Shown here in pieces: positions 49,421-61,929 of a stretch of 64,000 nucleotides of DNA; the stretch's first letter is position 1; the number at the start of each line of letters is the position of its first letter. The translations under genes were made by a program, and so were the position numbers. The stretch is taken from NCBI GenBank assembly GCA_016839365.1, contig JAEOUH010000069.1:1-64000 (forward strand). Direction: 5' to 3'. This DNA is from Candidatus Hermodarchaeota archaeon (GTDB lineage Archaea > Asgardarchaeota > Hermodarchaeia > Hermodarchaeales > Hermodarchaeaceae). The notes under the pieces are model-generated. The model was given only the letters and a program-made list of their open reading frames with translations. It was not told the DNA's origin and searched no databases.

Positions 49421-50632
49421 ATGGATATTCTGATGATAGAAATTCGGAAAATTACTAAAAATGAACGCCCCGCCATCATGGATCTTTACCGATATGCGTA
49501 CACAAAATGGACAGATCGGGAGGTTAAGAACGAAGAAATTGATGACATTATTGAGGATGAAACTCTGGGCCTGTTTGAACAAGGGCGCCTGGTCTCTTCT
49601 TTAAGGGTCCACGAATTCCAGCAATCAATCCGTGGTGTACTCAAGGATTGTGGAGGGGTAGCCGGGGTTGCCACATACCCGGAGGCACGACGGAAGGGAT
49701 ATGTACGAAAATTAATGCAGGAAGGTTTCAAGATGATGCGTGAGAAGGGGCAATCGGTCAGTATGCTCGATCCCTTTAAGCAAAGTTACTATGAAAAATT
49801 CGGGTACGTTGCTGCAAATACTGCCTATATTGTTGAAGCCCCACTCAAACAGCTACGCATATCAGACACGACGCCTCAGAATGTGGATTGGACCTTTGAA
49901 AGGGTTCGCGCAGTAAATGCCAAAGACGAATATCTAAAGTTTGTCCGCGAAGTAGGTCCTAAACAGTATCATGGTTACATCATTTTCAAAACCTTTCCTG
50001 ATGCTATGTGGAGACAGCGTACAAAAGAAAGTCTCATTGTCTTTGTCAAACATAAAGGAAAAATTCAGGCTTTAGGCCGGTATCGGATTAAAGGGGAACG
50101 AATCAAGGCTGAATTCCGCACAAATATGCAAGTGATCGATCTCTTATGGCGAACCCGAGAAGCTCGTGACAAACTCTTTTTCTTCTTCAGACAACACTGG
50201 GACCAAATCCATAATATCAGCATACATGCTCCCTTCGATACTAAGGTCGAACATTGGTTCAAAGATGCACGTTTGAAGATTGAACGTAAAACTCCTTGGA
50301 TGGTTCGCATCATCGACGCAAAGAACGCAATCCAGAATCTTCCAGGCCTTGGAGAAGACATCGTCACCCTTGAAATCACAGATCCTAATTGTCCCTGGAA
50401 TAATGGAACTTACTCCCTTCAATCAGAAAAAGGGCGTTTACACCTAACTAAAAGCTCAGGGCATCCTGAAGTAAAAGCTACTATTCAAGCGCTCTCAGCC
50501 TTAGTCTATGGAACACAACTAGTAGAGGAATTAGAGTTTCAAGAGGAACTATCAGTCACAGAAGAATGGGCTAGACATACTCTTCAACGGTGGTTCCCGC
50601 CTCTCCACCTATATAATGTCGTGTACTTCTAA
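49421..50632 (+). CDS. Eis-like GNAT acetyltransferase (double GNAT plus SCP2-like domain)
   Basis: GVAGVATYPEARRKG, SMLDPF..SYYEKFGY, WMVRIID, CPWNNG, ALSALVYG. Confidence 0.88.
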   Translation: MDILMIEIRKITKNERPAIMDLYRYAYTKWTDREVKNEEIDDIIEDETLGLFEQGRLVSSLRVHEFQQSIRGVLKDCGGVAGVATYPEARRKGYVRKLMQEGFKMMREKGQSVSMLDPFKQSYYEKFGYVAANTAYIVEAPLKQLRISDTTPQNVDWTFERVRAVNAKDEYLKFVREVGPKQYHGYIIFKTFPDAMWRQRTKESLIVFVKHKGKIQALGRYRIKGERIKAEFRTNMQVIDLLWRTREARDKLFFFFRQHWDQIHNISIHAPFDTKVEHWFKDARLKIERKTPWMVRIIDAKNAIQNLPGLGEDIVTLEITDPNCPWNNGTYSLQSEKGRLHLTKSSGHPEVKATIQALSALVYGTQLVEELEFQEELSVTEEWARHTLQRWFPPLHLYNVVYF

Positions 50633-55235: not shown

Positions 55236-56699
55236 TTATCTCCGGTGTAAATAGGGAGGTTCGGGAAGGTTGGGGTGTCGTTGGTAGTGGTGGTAAATGA
55301 GATTGAGGATATCGGCGGCTTCGGCGATGTTGGAGAAGACGGGAAGATTGGCGTCGCGGAACTGATTACGGGTTTCCAAGTTTTCTTGTGGATAGCTAAC
55401 AGCAGGGACTGCGACAAAGAAGGGTTTTCGGAGCTCACGGACACAATATTGACCGGCTTGAATCATCATGTCCCAATAAGTGGTGGCCATGCCCTGCAAG
55501 TCCATATGGTTAGCCATAAAGTTGACATAGTGAGGGGCGGCTTCGACGATGATGGCGTCGATATTTTTGTCTTCTGCGACATGTCGGATGGTCTTTACCG
55601 TGTTTTCGGGATAGAAGTAACTGGAAGCCATATCCACGGGATTTCTGATATTCGTGCCCACGGCATTGATGACATCGGATAAAGCTTCAATGGTTTCTGA
55701 ACTTAGTCGGGGCACTTCAAAGCCAAAATGGGCAAGTGAATCAGTGCCTGCAACACCTGCTCCGCCACTGATTGCGATAAGAGCAACTCGTTTACCTGGC
55801 GGACGTGGGCAGCGAATAAATGTGACAATTGTGTTCACCAGACGCTCAAAGCTGTCCACGGAAACTGCGCCTGTTTGACGGAGTAAGGCATTCCAGATGT
55901 CAGTGGATCCAGCTAAGGCTGCGCTATGGCTGGACACAGCTCGTTGACCTTCTTCTGTCACTCCGGATTTCCAGATAACGATGGGCTTGTCGGGAGCACA
56001 AGTAGCAATAGCCTTGCGTAGACGAGGTCCATCTCGGACACCTTCGATGTAGATGCCGATCACTTGGGTTTTTGGATCTTCGTGAAGATATTCGACCAGT
56101 TCCCAACTGCTGATATCGGCCTCATTGCCATAACTGAAGACTTTACTGCATCCAAGCTTGGTTTCTGTTACCGCAAGATATGCATCAATAGCTTTTCCAC
56201 CAGATTGGGAAATGAATCCCACAGGTCCTGGATTCCGTTTTAAATCAGGCCGAAATGCAAAATACGATTCAGGGCATGTCAAACCCATGCAGTTTGGACC
56301 AAAGGCCCGCATGGGGCTAGCATGTATTTTCTCAGCAATCGCTCGTTCACGTTGCCAGCCTTCTTCTGTGCCAAGTTCACTGAAACCACTAGTAAAGATA
56401 GTGACACATTTGACACCCTTCGCGATGCATTCATCCAACACCTGCAACACGCTCTGGGCTGGAACCCGTAAAATGGCATAATCCACGGGGTCGGGGATCT
56501 CACTCAGAGACTTGTAGAACTTGTATCCGAGGGCTTCATCGACCCGTGGGTTCACCGGGTAGAGCTTTCCTGGAAATCCAAAATTGAGAAAGGACCTGAA
56601 CCAGTAGAAACCAGCTGAGCGGCTTGTTCCAATTAAAGCGACGGATTTGGAGTGGATGAACTCTTCGAACTGCTGAAAGGTCTTGGCATCCATAGGCAT
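55236..56699 (-). CDS. ADP-forming acyl-CoA synthetase, alpha (CoA-binding) subunit
   Basis: SVALIGTS, YPVNP, FTSGFSE, GPNCMG, ISQSG, SYGNEAD, YIEG, SHSAALAG (phospho-His), SGGAG, NPVD; start at 56699 or 56693. Confidence 0.9.
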   Translation of the reverse strand: MPMDAKTFQQFEEFIHSKSVALIGTSRSAGFYWFRSFLNFGFPGKLYPVNPRVDEALGYKFYKSLSEIPDPVDYAILRVPAQSVLQVLDECIAKGVKCVTIFTSGFSELGTEEGWQRERAIAEKIHASPMRAFGPNCMGLTCPESYFAFRPDLKRNPGPVGFISQSGGKAIDAYLAVTETKLGCSKVFSYGNEADISSWELVEYLHEDPKTQVIGIYIEGVRDGPRLRKAIATCAPDKPIVIWKSGVTEEGQRAVSSHSAALAGSTDIWNALLRQTGAVSVDSFERLVNTIVTFIRCPRPPGKRVALIAISGGAGVAGTDSLAHFGFEVPRLSSETIEALSDVINAVGTNIRNPVDMASSYFYPENTVKTIRHVAEDKNIDAIIVEAAPHYVNFMANHMDLQGMATTYWDMMIQAGQYCVRELRKPFFVAVPAVSYPQENLETRNQFRDANLPVFSNIAEAADILNLIYHHYQRHPNLPEPPYLHRR

Positions 56700-56838
56700 C
56701 CCTGAAAGAGACTCGTTCGGATAGGCGAAGGGCAAGGATGTTCTACTATTTTATGCTGTCGTTTATCAGAACTACGTAGCTATGCATCTGTATAGAAGTC
56801 GTCACGTTTTATTGATAGCTGTTCACGCTTCGTTAAAG

Positions 56839-57342
56839 TCAGGATTCCTTCGAGTTGACGAAGATTTGGGGTAATGCCCTTTTAACGGCAAACATCACGG
56901 CGACGCCAATGGCACACAGGATGGCAGTGCTAATGAGGATGCCTGGCATCAGGAGAATGTAGGGCGTGAAGACCAGGAACTGAAGATAGGCTGGGACGCC
57001 TAACCCGATGATAAGAGTGGGGTATAACCAGGCGAGGAACCAATAGGGACAGGTTTTCCGGTTCATCACTAATACACCCGCTAGCAGATTGAGGAGGCTC
57101 CCAAAAACAACATCAATGGCTCCTAACCCACCGAAGATATTGGCAACGAAGCCCCCGATAAACAGGGCTAAAGCCATTGGCCAGCCAAGGATGTAGGGAA
57201 AAGGTAACAGCATATCAGCAACGCGAAATTGAATGCCATAATAACTGAGGGATCCTAACGCAATGGTGACCGCTGCATATACAGCAGCCATAATTGCCAT
57301 CACGGCAATACCTTGAGTACGATTTAAATTAGTTCGTTTCAT
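56839..57342 (-). CDS. queT: QueT family (7-deazaguanine precursor) transporter S-component
   Basis: MAAVYAAVT, SYYGIQFRVAD, IGGFVANIFG, DVVFGSL; ATG 57342 lies 8 nt after GAGGTG. Confidence 0.85.
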   Translation of the reverse strand: MKRTNLNRTQGIAVMAIMAAVYAAVTIALGSLSYYGIQFRVADMLLPFPYILGWPMALALFIGGFVANIFGGLGAIDVVFGSLLNLLAGVLVMNRKTCPYWFLAWLYPTLIIGLGVPAYLQFLVFTPYILLMPGILISTAILCAIGVAVMFAVKRALPQIFVNSKES

Positions 57343-57350
57343 GACAATGA

Positions 57351-57412
57351 CACCTCGCAGCCCGGGATTTATTTGAATGAGCGGAACTCGGCACGAGGAA
57401 CCCACCCGCTCG
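57351..57412 (-). promoter_or_regulatory. candidate riboswitch-like pseudoknotted leader of queT
   Basis: GAGCGG/CCGCTC stem, A-rich linker, loop CCTCGTG complementary to TGCGAGG overlapping the SD; TTATAA box at 57435-57440. Confidence 0.45.
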
Positions 57413-57562
57413 GAAATCGCCACGTTTTTGCTCCTTATAACTGCTTTGTCAAATCAACCAACATTCATAAAAGGGATGAGTATCTGTGCTTGGAGTCTCA
57501 CGAACTTGAAGTAAACTTCTAATTATAAAAGGAGTTACACACGAAACCAATAGACTGCAAGG

Positions 57563-59497
57563 GTGGGCAACACGATGCCGATACACATCGAAGATGAGTT
57601 GTACCTTGATGAAAAGCAGGTCTTTTACAACCCAAACGACCAATGGTTTGTCGAATACCTCAAACTGTACTATGTCCACACCATAGATGGACAATATCTC
57701 TTTGGCAACACCCAGGCGGGTCGACGACCCGATCGTGCTTTCTACATTATCCCCGAAGGGTATAAACTGGGAAAAGGTCAACGCAGCTTCGACCGGAAAA
57801 TCGGACTCCAACTCTTTGAAGTTGTTCTCCAGTATCTCAAAACCGCCAAAGTCATCGTCCAGGATGGAATCCAAGGGGAAAGTGGATATAAGACAGGGCT
57901 TCGAATTGTACTCAGCGTAGAGAACCCCCATACAGCTTATATCACTTGGTTTGGCCGTTTGATGATTTATCCACCGGAAGAGAACATGAAAATCAATTGC
58001 TGGAACTATGTTGTACAGGAACGCTTACCCGGTGACTTAATCCGGGAAATTCAATCTTTCTGGCCCGCTTTTGACCCCGATGAGCCCCTTACGTTGTATG
58101 ACTTGACTCGTATGGACGAGGATCATCGTCGGGTGATGAGTCTACGGGTCGATTATTTTGGCGGAGCTTTTAAGAAACCCAACCTAACCATGGTCTGGAA
58201 TCGTGGGGAAGCTGATGGGTGCATATCCTATCACGCTGGTTGCACTAGTAGCCGTGTGCTTAAAGGCCTCTCAGGCACTGGCAAAACAACTCTTACTGTA
58301 GGCCCTCAACTTGAACAAGATGATGCTGTGCTTGGATTACCCAAACATAATGCTACGTCCAGGATAAGAGAGGTGCAACTAATCGGACTTGAAGCTGCAT
58401 CTTATGCGAAGAGTGAAGGCTTGGTGCCAGATAGCCCTGAATGGCCAGGGCTCATGAAGTCGAAGTATATCCAGCCTGATGGAACCAGACCAGTTGTTCT
58501 TGCCCAAAACATTGACTGTGAAGGAATTGAATATCGGATAGAAGAAATCGCCGGATATCACGTCAAGGTTCCTCGAGTGCTCCCTGGTCAACAGGTGGGC
58601 CACCTCCAACCAACACGTTACGAACAATCAGGAACTACCAATGGCCGGTTCGTCTTCCGTTTCTATGACCTGAATCCTGACTGGAAACCGGGATTACCCA
58701 AGAATCTACACACAGAAATGTTGTCATTTCGGCGATTTGACATCTTTCCCTTAGTCGTTCGCATCACTGACCCAGTCATGGCCGTCGCCCTTGATTCCGC
58801 CTGTGAATCAGTGATTACCTCCGCTATCGGCGGGAAGATACCTGGGACCCGAGTCCGCTCTTATGCCGCAACCGATTTCATGGCCCGTGAACAAAGCCAC
58901 CAAGCACTCCTCAAACTGGATATGTACACCGACATGAACCTTGGCCTTGATGGACAACTCGTATTCGCCATCGTAAATTCGGGATATGTGGGCGAATATG
59001 CCCTCGATGGGCAACAACGTCGGCGCCTTGATGAGAAAGGGCAACCTATACCAAAAATCGATGAAGCTACTGGAAAACCCTATCTAAACGCTCAAGGAAA
59101 ACCTGAATACCTGGGTTTAGGTGAAAAAATTAAAGTTGGCGACACCAAACTCCTTGTAACACTAACAGAAACCCGTGCAATTAAGACATGGCACCCGCAC
59201 CCAGTCTTCGGTGACGCCTACCTGATCCCAGACCCCACTGAACTAGAAGAAACCCATGGGCTCTCCAATTACCGGGAACGGTTCAATCCCCTCCGCTTCT
59301 ATTCACCCAAAGAATACTTGGCATTCTGCCTACATGATATTGATGAACGCAGCACCTATCTTAACGACCTGTTTTCCGGACAGGAACACGCAGACAAATT
59401 ACAACCAATCATCAACGTGTGGCGTAAGGTGACCCTTCCATCAGAAAAAACAATCCAGACCTTTTATGAAACCCACTTCGGGAAAATCAGCCCATGA
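57563..59497 (+). CDS. phosphoenolpyruvate carboxykinase (ATP)-like protein, divergent
   Basis: YFGGAFKK, YHAGC, GLSGTGKTTL, EQDD, LEAASYAK, TTNGR match PEPCK kinase-1/kinase-2 and substrate motifs. Confidence 0.78.
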   Translation: MGNTMPIHIEDELYLDEKQVFYNPNDQWFVEYLKLYYVHTIDGQYLFGNTQAGRRPDRAFYIIPEGYKLGKGQRSFDRKIGLQLFEVVLQYLKTAKVIVQDGIQGESGYKTGLRIVLSVENPHTAYITWFGRLMIYPPEENMKINCWNYVVQERLPGDLIREIQSFWPAFDPDEPLTLYDLTRMDEDHRRVMSLRVDYFGGAFKKPNLTMVWNRGEADGCISYHAGCTSSRVLKGLSGTGKTTLTVGPQLEQDDAVLGLPKHNATSRIREVQLIGLEAASYAKSEGLVPDSPEWPGLMKSKYIQPDGTRPVVLAQNIDCEGIEYRIEEIAGYHVKVPRVLPGQQVGHLQPTRYEQSGTTNGRFVFRFYDLNPDWKPGLPKNLHTEMLSFRRFDIFPLVVRITDPVMAVALDSACESVITSAIGGKIPGTRVRSYAATDFMAREQSHQALLKLDMYTDMNLGLDGQLVFAIVNSGYVGEYALDGQQRRRLDEKGQPIPKIDEATGKPYLNAQGKPEYLGLGEKIKVGDTKLLVTLTETRAIKTWHPHPVFGDAYLIPDPTELEETHGLSNYRERFNPLRFYSPKEYLAFCLHDIDERSTYLNDLFSGQEHADKLQPIINVWRKVTLPSEKTIQTFYETHFGKISP

Positions 59498-60720: not shown

Positions 60721-61929
60721 GTGGTACAAATGGAAATCCGAAAACTAACCAAAGAGGACATGACTAAAGTTATCAAACTCCATCAATACAGCTACGGATT
60801 CTGGACCGACCATGATGTCCGTGACGAAGACCACAACTATATGATTCCTGAAAACAGCATCGGGCTCTTCGAAAACGATAATCTCGTTTCGGTTGCCACC
60901 ATTATGCATACCCAGCAATCAATTCGTGGTATCCTCAAGGGCATGGGCGGAATTTCCATGGTCTGCACCTATCCAGAAAAACGGATGAAAGGCTATGTCC
61001 GATCAATCATGCAAAGTGCCTTTCTTGAAATGAAAGAAGCTGAACTCTCAGTTAGCATGCTTGAACCCTTCCGGGAATCCTTCTACACAGACCTCGGCGA
61101 TGTCCCTGCCCATGACAAATACCGATTGAAAGCCCCTCTGAACGGCTTACGTGTACCACCAGACATTAGGATTGGTGATGAATGGACAGTTGAACGTATT
61201 CCAGGACACGAAGCTAAAGAACGCTATATGGCTTTCATCAAAGCCTTCGCACCAACCAAGTTTCATGGATTTGCCTACAACCCTTCAATCCGGGATGAGG
61301 AATGGCGCCGCCGCAACAAAGACCATCACTACGTCTTCATTAAGAAAGCCGGTCAAGTCGAAGCACTCGCTCGTTACACACTCAAAGGGTACATGCACTT
61401 TGAACAACCAGGAGAACTCATAATCAGAGAAATGTACTGGCGCTCCCTTCCCGCCCAAACTGCCCTCTTCCATTATCTGGGTAAACACCGGGATCAAATC
61501 CAAACCCTTCACATAATCTTGCCCTACGGAACCGATTTTCAACACTGGTTCGAACACCTCCAAGACTGGATTGAAATCAAGGTTTGGCACCCTTGGATGG
61601 TGCGTGTCATTGACGCCAAAGAAGCTCTTACAGGACTCCCCGTATCAACTGACGGCGAACTCACTTTCACACTGACAGATCCTCAGTGCGGCTGGAATAA
61701 CGGCACTTACCTACTCAAATCAAACAATGGTCAACTCGACGTGAGTATGACAAAACGGAGTGTCAAACTCGAAGCCTCAATCCAGGGGCTTAGTGCTCTT
61801 GTCTACGGCACTCATTCCATTGAAGCCCTTGAATATATTGGGTGGATAAAGGGAGTAAGCGACACCACCCGAAAACTCCTACATAACTGGTTCCCACAAC
61901 TACCGCTGTACAATCCCTACACTTTCTGA
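60721..61929 (+). CDS. Eis-like GNAT acetyltransferase (paralog of 49421-50632)
   Basis: GGISMVCTYPEKRMKG, SMLEPFRESFY, WMVRVID, CGWNNG, GLSALVYG. Confidence 0.88.
   Translation: MVQMEIRKLTKEDMTKVIKLHQYSYGFWTDHDVRDEDHNYMIPENSIGLFENDNLVSVATIMHTQQSIRGILKGMGGISMVCTYPEKRMKGYVRSIMQSAFLEMKEAELSVSMLEPFRESFYTDLGDVPAHDKYRLKAPLNGLRVPPDIRIGDEWTVERIPGHEAKERYMAFIKAFAPTKFHGFAYNPSIRDEEWRRRNKDHHYVFIKKAGQVEALARYTLKGYMHFEQPGELIIREMYWRSLPAQTALFHYLGKHRDQIQTLHIILPYGTDFQHWFEHLQDWIEIKVWHPWMVRVIDAKEALTGLPVSTDGELTFTLTDPQCGWNNGTYLLKSNNGQLDVSMTKRSVKLEASIQGLSALVYGTHSIEALEYIGWIKGVSDTTRKLLHNWFPQLPLYNPYTF

Follow-up and report, generated by a model that had tools for sequence, protein, structure and literature searches.

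A pseudoknot RNA motif in the leaders of archaeal queT genes: a probable new class of riboswitch

In bacteria, riboswitches of class preQ1-I control the genes queT and queC by means of pseudoknots that bury the Shine-Dalgarno (SD) sequence (PMC11625349), and members of this class also precede yhhQ. The preQ1-II (RF01054) and preQ1-III (RF02680) classes are likewise located before COG4708/queT, exert translational control via the SD, and fold into larger pseudoknots of the HLout type with 4-5 helices, a 10-nt pocket and U-A-U triples (PMC11625349). The 2024 review of preQ1 riboswitches makes no mention of archaea (PMC11625349), and two papers name just one natural riboswitch with experimental proof in archaea, the fluoride riboswitch of Thermococcus kodakarensis (PMC8241225, PMC11549558), an ion sensor whose class is common to bacteria. 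The archaeal queT leader described here differs from the fluoride riboswitch in that it was found in archaeal-type contexts only, among the matches listed, and in that it is tied to a tRNA-modification pathway. Comparison with its relatives indicates that it belongs to a real, widespread and covarying archaeal RNA motif, a strong candidate for an undescribed class of riboswitches. The motif is absent from Rfam 15 and from the largely open-access literature searched.

The stretch of Hermodarchaeota DNA analysed (64,000 nucleotides, referred to as the window) carries on its minus strand a gene whose leader had been described in an earlier note, from the letters alone, as a TTATAA box followed by a 6-bp stem, an A-rich linker and an SD that could be masked by pairing with the loop of the stem. 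All letters and spacings quoted there were found on the minus strand, with a gap of 23 nt between TTATAA and the 5' arm of the stem, the A-rich linker at 57378-57367 and CCCGGG at 57366-57361. The downstream open reading frame (ORF), taken for queT in that note, does match the corresponding Pfam family well above cut-off (Table 1), and the open frame of QueT in relatives is of similar size (165-168 aa). An N-terminal extension of QueT from an in-frame GTG at 57423 was considered and discarded, as relatives have a stop codon directly before the AUG. Genes of the EcfT family are present elsewhere in the window's genome, and the substrate of archaeal QueT is presumed here by analogy with bacterial QueT. 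The SD starts at -14, and the window genome's own SD peak lies at -14 to -11. The leader occurs as a single copy in the window's genome, and the idea of a mobile or repeated element was abandoned.

Table 1. Coordinates of queT and of the elements of its leader within the window.
Feature	Coordinates	Strand	Remarks
queT ORF	56839-57342	-	167 aa, ECF S-component-type transporter; PF06177, E 4.2e-26, 92.4 bits, cut-off 33.7
TATA-like box TTATAA	57435-57440	-	sequence; putative function
P1, 5' strand	57405-57411	-	100% pairing among 20 copies of the Hermodarchaeia/Helarchaeales type; C-G in place of G-C in 24 copies from elsewhere
Loop L1 with conserved U-G-R-G	57399-57404	-	U 193/195, G 182/195, purine 195/195, G 177/195
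Anti-SD strand of pseudoknot helix	57392-57398	-	covaries with SD tail
Conserved CCG	57389-57391	-	pairs with CGG 57364-57362; CCG 190, CUG 5 (U-G pair kept); partner GG 185/195
Loop L2	57386-57388	-	3 nt in the window, mostly 1 nt in other copies; no conservation of the last base
P1, 3' strand	57379-57385	-	starts with invariant U of G-U pair
Loop L3	57365-57378	-	variable linker of 5-14 nt, then conserved A-N-AAA-H-CC
Pseudoknot helix, 3' strand	57353-57364	-	CGG, 2-nt bulge, 7 nt overlapping SD; pairing in 93% of cells, change on both sides in 3 pairs
Shine-Dalgarno GAGGUG	57351-57356	-	8 nt before AUG (57342)

Across 195 instances, the A+T content peaks at 0.82-0.91 between -33 and -29 from the core of the motif, and TATA-like words are concentrated between -37 and -29. 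The usual archaeal distance between TATA box and start would place the first transcribed base about 3-6 nt upstream of the core, and with such a start the motif would make up nearly the entire leader.

When five spans around the leader were folded as single sequences, they were no more stable than shuffled versions (z scores of +1.31, +0.37, +0.26, +1.05 and -0.85), and therefore the case for a structure rests on comparison with relatives. For this comparison 195 instances were parsed, 2 of them incorrectly. The stem P1 reads GCGGG/UCCGC in 168 and GCGCG/UGCGC in 24 of the 195 copies, which amounts to a two-sided swap. This internal swap arose several times, with only 4 informative independent pairs (p 0.125). 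The pair flanking P1 is formed in 96% of copies versus 72% in shuffles, and when it is followed along the QueT tree, about 7.5 of 11 independent comparisons show both of its sides changed and none shows the opposite (p 0.008). P1 closes with a G-U pair in every copy that was counted. The 6-bp stem of the earlier note (57411-57406 with 57384-57379) is present but is one G-U pair longer (57405 with 57385) than described.

The second helix is formed between the loop of P1 and the tail that contains the SD. It is anchored by the pairing of CCG in the loop with CGG, which had been overlooked previously, and continues as the predicted pairing of the loop with the SD, for which compensatory changes were found among the archaeal leaders. 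The full pseudoknot is 95% paired in the 20 Hermodarchaeia-type copies, including that of the window, and 91% paired in 38 copies of the Bathyarchaeia type, versus 34-56% in controls with slid partners. Duplexes between each loop and its own tail have a mean energy of -16.6 kcal/mol (-15.2 kcal/mol in the window), versus -14.4 kcal/mol in permutations, the best of which reached -15.0 kcal/mol. The preference for the own tail holds also in copies with a decayed SD, in which both strands have changed together. The shuffle controls ignore relatedness, and more reliance is therefore placed on the tree-based test and on the controls with slid partners. An SD match of 4-8 nt was found in the tails of 183 of 193 copies. 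These comparisons support a leader that folds as an H-type pseudoknot, with P1 and a loop strand paired with CGG and the SD tail, in a core of 37-58 nt containing two helices only. In one subtype (loci L227, L229-L231 and L333) an A-run replaces CGG after the Cs and a single G-C pair is left at the junction; this subtype should be useful for defining the minimal core.

Two further pairings proposed at the outset did not hold. A helix between GGG of the loop and CCC after the linker is possible in the window but shows no covariation: in most copies the loop reads G-A-G with CCC unchanged, and 11 G-to-A changes at position 2 of L1 have no change in the partner. Pairing of CUCG with CGAG inside the loop, suggested as the ON state, gives a hairpin of -2.5 kcal/mol in the window but falls below -1 kcal/mol in only 4 of the 20 copies of this subtype, and no conserved competing fold was detected in these 20 Hermodarchaeia copies. 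The Bathyarchaeia copies have a hairpin within the loop that is 96% paired and mutually exclusive with the anti-SD helix; it could represent the ON state there or instead a third strand.

Among the unpaired positions, L3 has A at -2 in 190 and AAA-H-CCC in 194 of the 195 copies, the base counts of L1 and L3 being conditioned in part by the search pattern with which copies were found. The two Cs of L3 are without covarying partner and are candidate ligand-reading bases. The conservation of unpaired bases also bears on another explanation, a constitutive or temperature-dependent structure that damps translation or protects the 5' end, or else a DNA operator. In its favour, the loop-tail duplex is strong by itself, and other Asgard queT genes do carry palindromic DNA boxes. 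However, plain helices need no fixed unpaired bases, whereas those of the motif are near-invariant across two phyla, and an RNA rather than a DNA site is indicated by changes compatible with G-U pairing, by loops that vary from 8 to 21 nt and by covariation between loop and SD. An explanation of this kind is hardly probable.

The motif is widespread, with about 190 distinct archaeal instances in six Asgard families, in Bathyarchaeia and in records labelled Nitrososphaeria. All 16 other genomes of the window's family that have this queT carry the same leader. A degenerate pattern built from the element matched 28 of 400 genomes of the Asgard phylum, once each and in six families, whereas the reversed pattern gave 0 matches in the same 400 genomes; apart from one match that lies at the end of a contig, each of the 28 stands before a QueT-like ORF. 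A GTDB-wide scan with one genome per species, in which the pattern comprised the outer parts of the motif only, gave at least 119 matches. Among the matches listed, 66 have the inner core, which was not part of the pattern, together with QueT directly downstream, and 47 bacterial ones have neither. The 6 mixed cases among the matches listed comprise a QueT leader with the CUG variant, two matches truncated at sequence ends, one that precedes a divergent ORF plus QueC, and two chance matches in bacteria. The bacterial matches without QueT, 49 among those listed, were treated as chance. True matches among those listed carry the labels Hermodarchaeota, Odinarchaeia, Atabeyarchaeum, Helarchaeota, Bathyarchaeia and Nitrososphaeria, among others. 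Of three true matches with bacterial or Methanocella labels, one lies on a contig identical to that of a genome assigned to the window's phylum, whereas in the QueT tree the other two fall among Bathyarchaeia. Viral sequences gave 0 matches in one search and then 1, a chance match inside a coding frame.

A covariance model detected the motif in 114 of 151 genomes of Bathyarchaeia (E<1e-3) and in 29 of 151 genomes of the window's phylum. Inspection of 111 of the covariance-model matches placed 103 before QueT and 5 before an unclassified membrane protein, with 2 false matches and 1 at a contig end. The unclassified protein of 229-234 aa, headed by the motif in five Bathyarchaeia copies (L250:1114-1800, minus strand; L257:216-917, plus strand; L260; L271; L274), had no match in Pfam or NCBIfam, and the Atlas clusters closest to it bear the name of ECF S components; it is a candidate for a new family of 7-deazaguanine transporters. 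The QueT genes of six other Asgard families had no motif match with the covariance model, and 13 motif-less Asgard queT loci gave none even with filters off. The motif-less queT leaders of families f16 and f30 (L363-L383) mostly have 2-3 tandem palindromic boxes of the TACGTA type before the SD, and at L365 and L375 a divergent small ORF starting with MxKKKLTLTV, ribbon-helix-helix-like by eye, lies upstream of queT. The boxes and the small ORF are possibly a repressor-operator system that replaces the RNA motif. At L032, L033, L232 and L362, loci of Atabeyarchaeia and of some Bathyarchaeia, the distance from the motif to the first in-frame start or QueT match is large, or a short ORF intervenes, and at these loci the start codon or the switching mechanism may differ.

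The earlier note had proposed a candidate riboswitch of preQ0/preQ1 type, and membership in preQ1-I, preQ1-II or preQ1-III was not borne out. Rfam searches at E<=10 of the window and of 19 related loci or spans gave unrelated weak matches only. RF00522 (preQ1-I) had no match at E<=10 in window spans of 91 nt and 1.2 kb and 18 related loci. When 5 genomes were searched with it at E<=1, the motif was not matched, although a control of the B. subtilis type was detected. With preQ1-I (types I-III) the motif does share a small H-type pseudoknot with the SD buried in P2, a G and then a U at the top of the 5' strand of P1, a U at the start of L1, the A-run of L3 and the location before queT/queC. It differs in several respects from the class. 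In preQ1-I the 3' strand of P1 is preceded by the specificity C of UC/AC, whereas the base at this place in the motif is U in 170 copies, that of the window included, C in 22 and A in 3 of the 195; when P1 is counted as 4 bp, the specificity position corresponds to the invariant U of the motif. The floor of the preQ1-I pocket is a Watson-Crick G-C pair, and in the motif a G-U pair lies atop P1. In addition, the motif has an extra H-C-C between A-run and P2, a P2 of about 10 bp with a bulge, and archaeal hosts that mostly lack QueF. In the case of preQ1-II and preQ1-III, the Rfam models gave no match either, and the motif, with its two helices, lacks a conserved C on the 5' flank of the loop. 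The bases of its core map onto no known preQ1 pocket; the motif works like preQ1-I but is not a member of it.

A likeness of another kind was found with the guanidine-III riboswitch (RF01763; PMC5696562), which has a similar H-type topology and of which the third strand with G7, A8 and G9, the pairing CCG:CGG and A-N-A-A are common to 72-100% of copies of the motif. Two guanines that bind the ligand in guanidine-III are shared, G7 in 94% (A in 11 copies) and G17 in 100%. By contrast, other guanidine-III bases are absent, namely A5 (0%), C6 (1%), C20 (0%) and G34-A35 (0%), together with the pair U18-A35, and a search of the genomes with RF01763 gave no match to the motif at E<=1. This order of the core could speak for a riboswitch with a ligand other than a 7-deazaguanine, such as guanine, another purine or a guanidinium-type cation, in which case archaeal QueT would carry something else, and the five copies that head a different S-component-like gene would fit as well. 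The missing guanidine-III bases, the tight linkage to queC and the opposite logic, guanidine-III turning export genes ON and the motif burying the SD of an importer, make such a ligand decidedly unlikely. As a resemblance only, the likeness to guanidine-III is a lead that makes the amidinium-bearing archaeosine base worth considering as a candidate ligand and is not evidence for it.

Genes of the 7-deazaguanine pathway were searched in genomes of these archaea. TgtA, the archaeal tRNA-G15 enzyme, has preQ0 as its known substrate (PMC4770233). Each of five motif-bearing genomes tested contained one tRNA-guanine transglycosylase (TGT), and the three TGTs scanned were TgtA over cut-off. QueC gave only partial matches in the window's genome, which is 84% complete, and in two closed Asgard genomes, and the one weak Asgard match that was scanned proved to be LarE. 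QueD/PTPS was absent in these two closed Asgard genomes. The window's genome has a stand-alone gene of the PTPS family (L305:1489-1980, minus strand), below the QueD cut-off, in a genome where no QueC was found. Bathyarchaeia yielded 44 QueC genes that scored over cut-off, and 37 of these follow the motif at a distance of no more than 800 nt, in the arrangement queT-queC where inspected. QueD/PTPS was detected in only 1 of the 37 genomes with motif-linked QueC, and QueC is missing in 74 of the 114 motif-bearing Bathyarchaeia genomes. The queT-queC pair looks like a salvage operon and not like a part of de novo synthesis. QueF was over cut-off in 2 of 151 Bathyarchaeia genomes, as judged with a Pfam model that may miss QueF-like enzymes, and with QueF nearly absent preQ1 has little source or use, so that preQ1 is unlikely as the natural ligand. 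ArcS was found in 0 of 151 Bathyarchaeia genomes and in none of the Asgard genomes tested. The base-binding loop of TgtA (L185-L189, L311) reads GSPT or GSPV versus GGVV in Pyrococcus, a change that may alter the base accepted by the enzyme. Some archaeal TGTs may insert the archaeosine base directly, and the archaeosine base deamidates to preQ0 (PMC5699537). Imported CDG/ADG may be what the motif-linked QueC uses, or its product may be the archaeosine base.

With these data, the proposal of an OFF switch sensing a 7-deazaguanine is the best reading of the leader, given the covariation, the SD inside the pseudoknot, the fixed position of the putative promoter and the association with queT or queT-queC. 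The queT-leader motif most likely constitutes an undescribed riboswitch class, and the leader probably acts as a translational OFF riboswitch that senses a salvaged 7-deazaguanine base. If the sensed base is a 7-deazaguanine, preQ0 is its likeliest identity and may well be the true one, the archaeosine base is a rather unlikely second candidate, and CDG/ADG or preQ1 would be very unlikely. It is rather likely that the class is specific to archaea (Asgard and Thermoproteota) and reads preQ0 or the archaeosine base by a new pocket, possibly an amidinium-binding fold like that of guanidine-III. In the proposed mechanism, transcription would start a few bases 5' of P1, as suggested by the position of the TATA-like box; P1 would fold and the loop strand would pair via CCG:CGG into the SD tail, the covariation-supported step that yields the H-type pseudoknot. 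By analogy, the ligand might bind at the junction of P1 and P2, contacting the invariant G-U pair, U and G of L1, the adenines of L3 and the two unpaired Cs. Once bound, it would lock the helix over the SD, and translation of QueT and of co-transcribed QueC would stop, presumably when the substrate of the archaeal TGT is plentiful.

An invariant core and masking of the SD are also typical of leaders bound by proteins. The pseudoknot might be a translational operator recognised by a protein of the pathway, TgtA or QueC, or a substrate of TGT, and the SD would then be closed through protein binding or exchange of a base. TgtA is present in all genomes tested and may act on RNAs besides tRNA (PMC4770233), but the motif precedes transporters and not the gene of an RNA-binding protein, no tRNA or leader of Rfam was matched, and, as far as QueC is concerned, most motif-bearing Bathyarchaeia are without it. 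A protein-bound operator is unlikely on this evidence, and a ligand-sensing RNA is preferred.

If the riboswitch reading is correct, SD-masking riboswitches would be widely used by archaea, in about three quarters of the sampled Bathyarchaeia and in six Asgard families, and a fourth aptamer fold for 7-deazaguanines would be added to those described. It would also point to cross-feeding of tRNA-modification bases in sediments. An archaea-specific class that reads preQ0 or the archaeosine base would mark a salvage route: lineages without QueD, ArcS and QueF would take up 7-deazaguanines and complete or insert them through an unknown step. Archaeal genetics could gain a small ligand-controlled switch. 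As the RNA has 50-60 nt and most candidate ligands can be purchased or made, the claim is directly testable.

Some neighbouring genes of the window were also recorded. On the same strand and 3' of queT, positions 55236-56735 encode an acyl-CoA synthetase with CoA-binding and ligase flavodoxin domains; at least 9 Hermodarchaeia loci have such a gene behind queT in the same orientation, with no evident link to the pathway. The divergent gene at 57563-59497 on the plus strand encodes 644 aa and has a weak match to PEPCK_ATP (E 3e-7, residues 70-249), from which its product might be an unusual PEP carboxykinase-like protein. Also on the plus strand, two ORFs of about 400 aa (49421-50632 and 60721-61929) look similar to each other and acetyltransferase-like when their translations are compared by eye.
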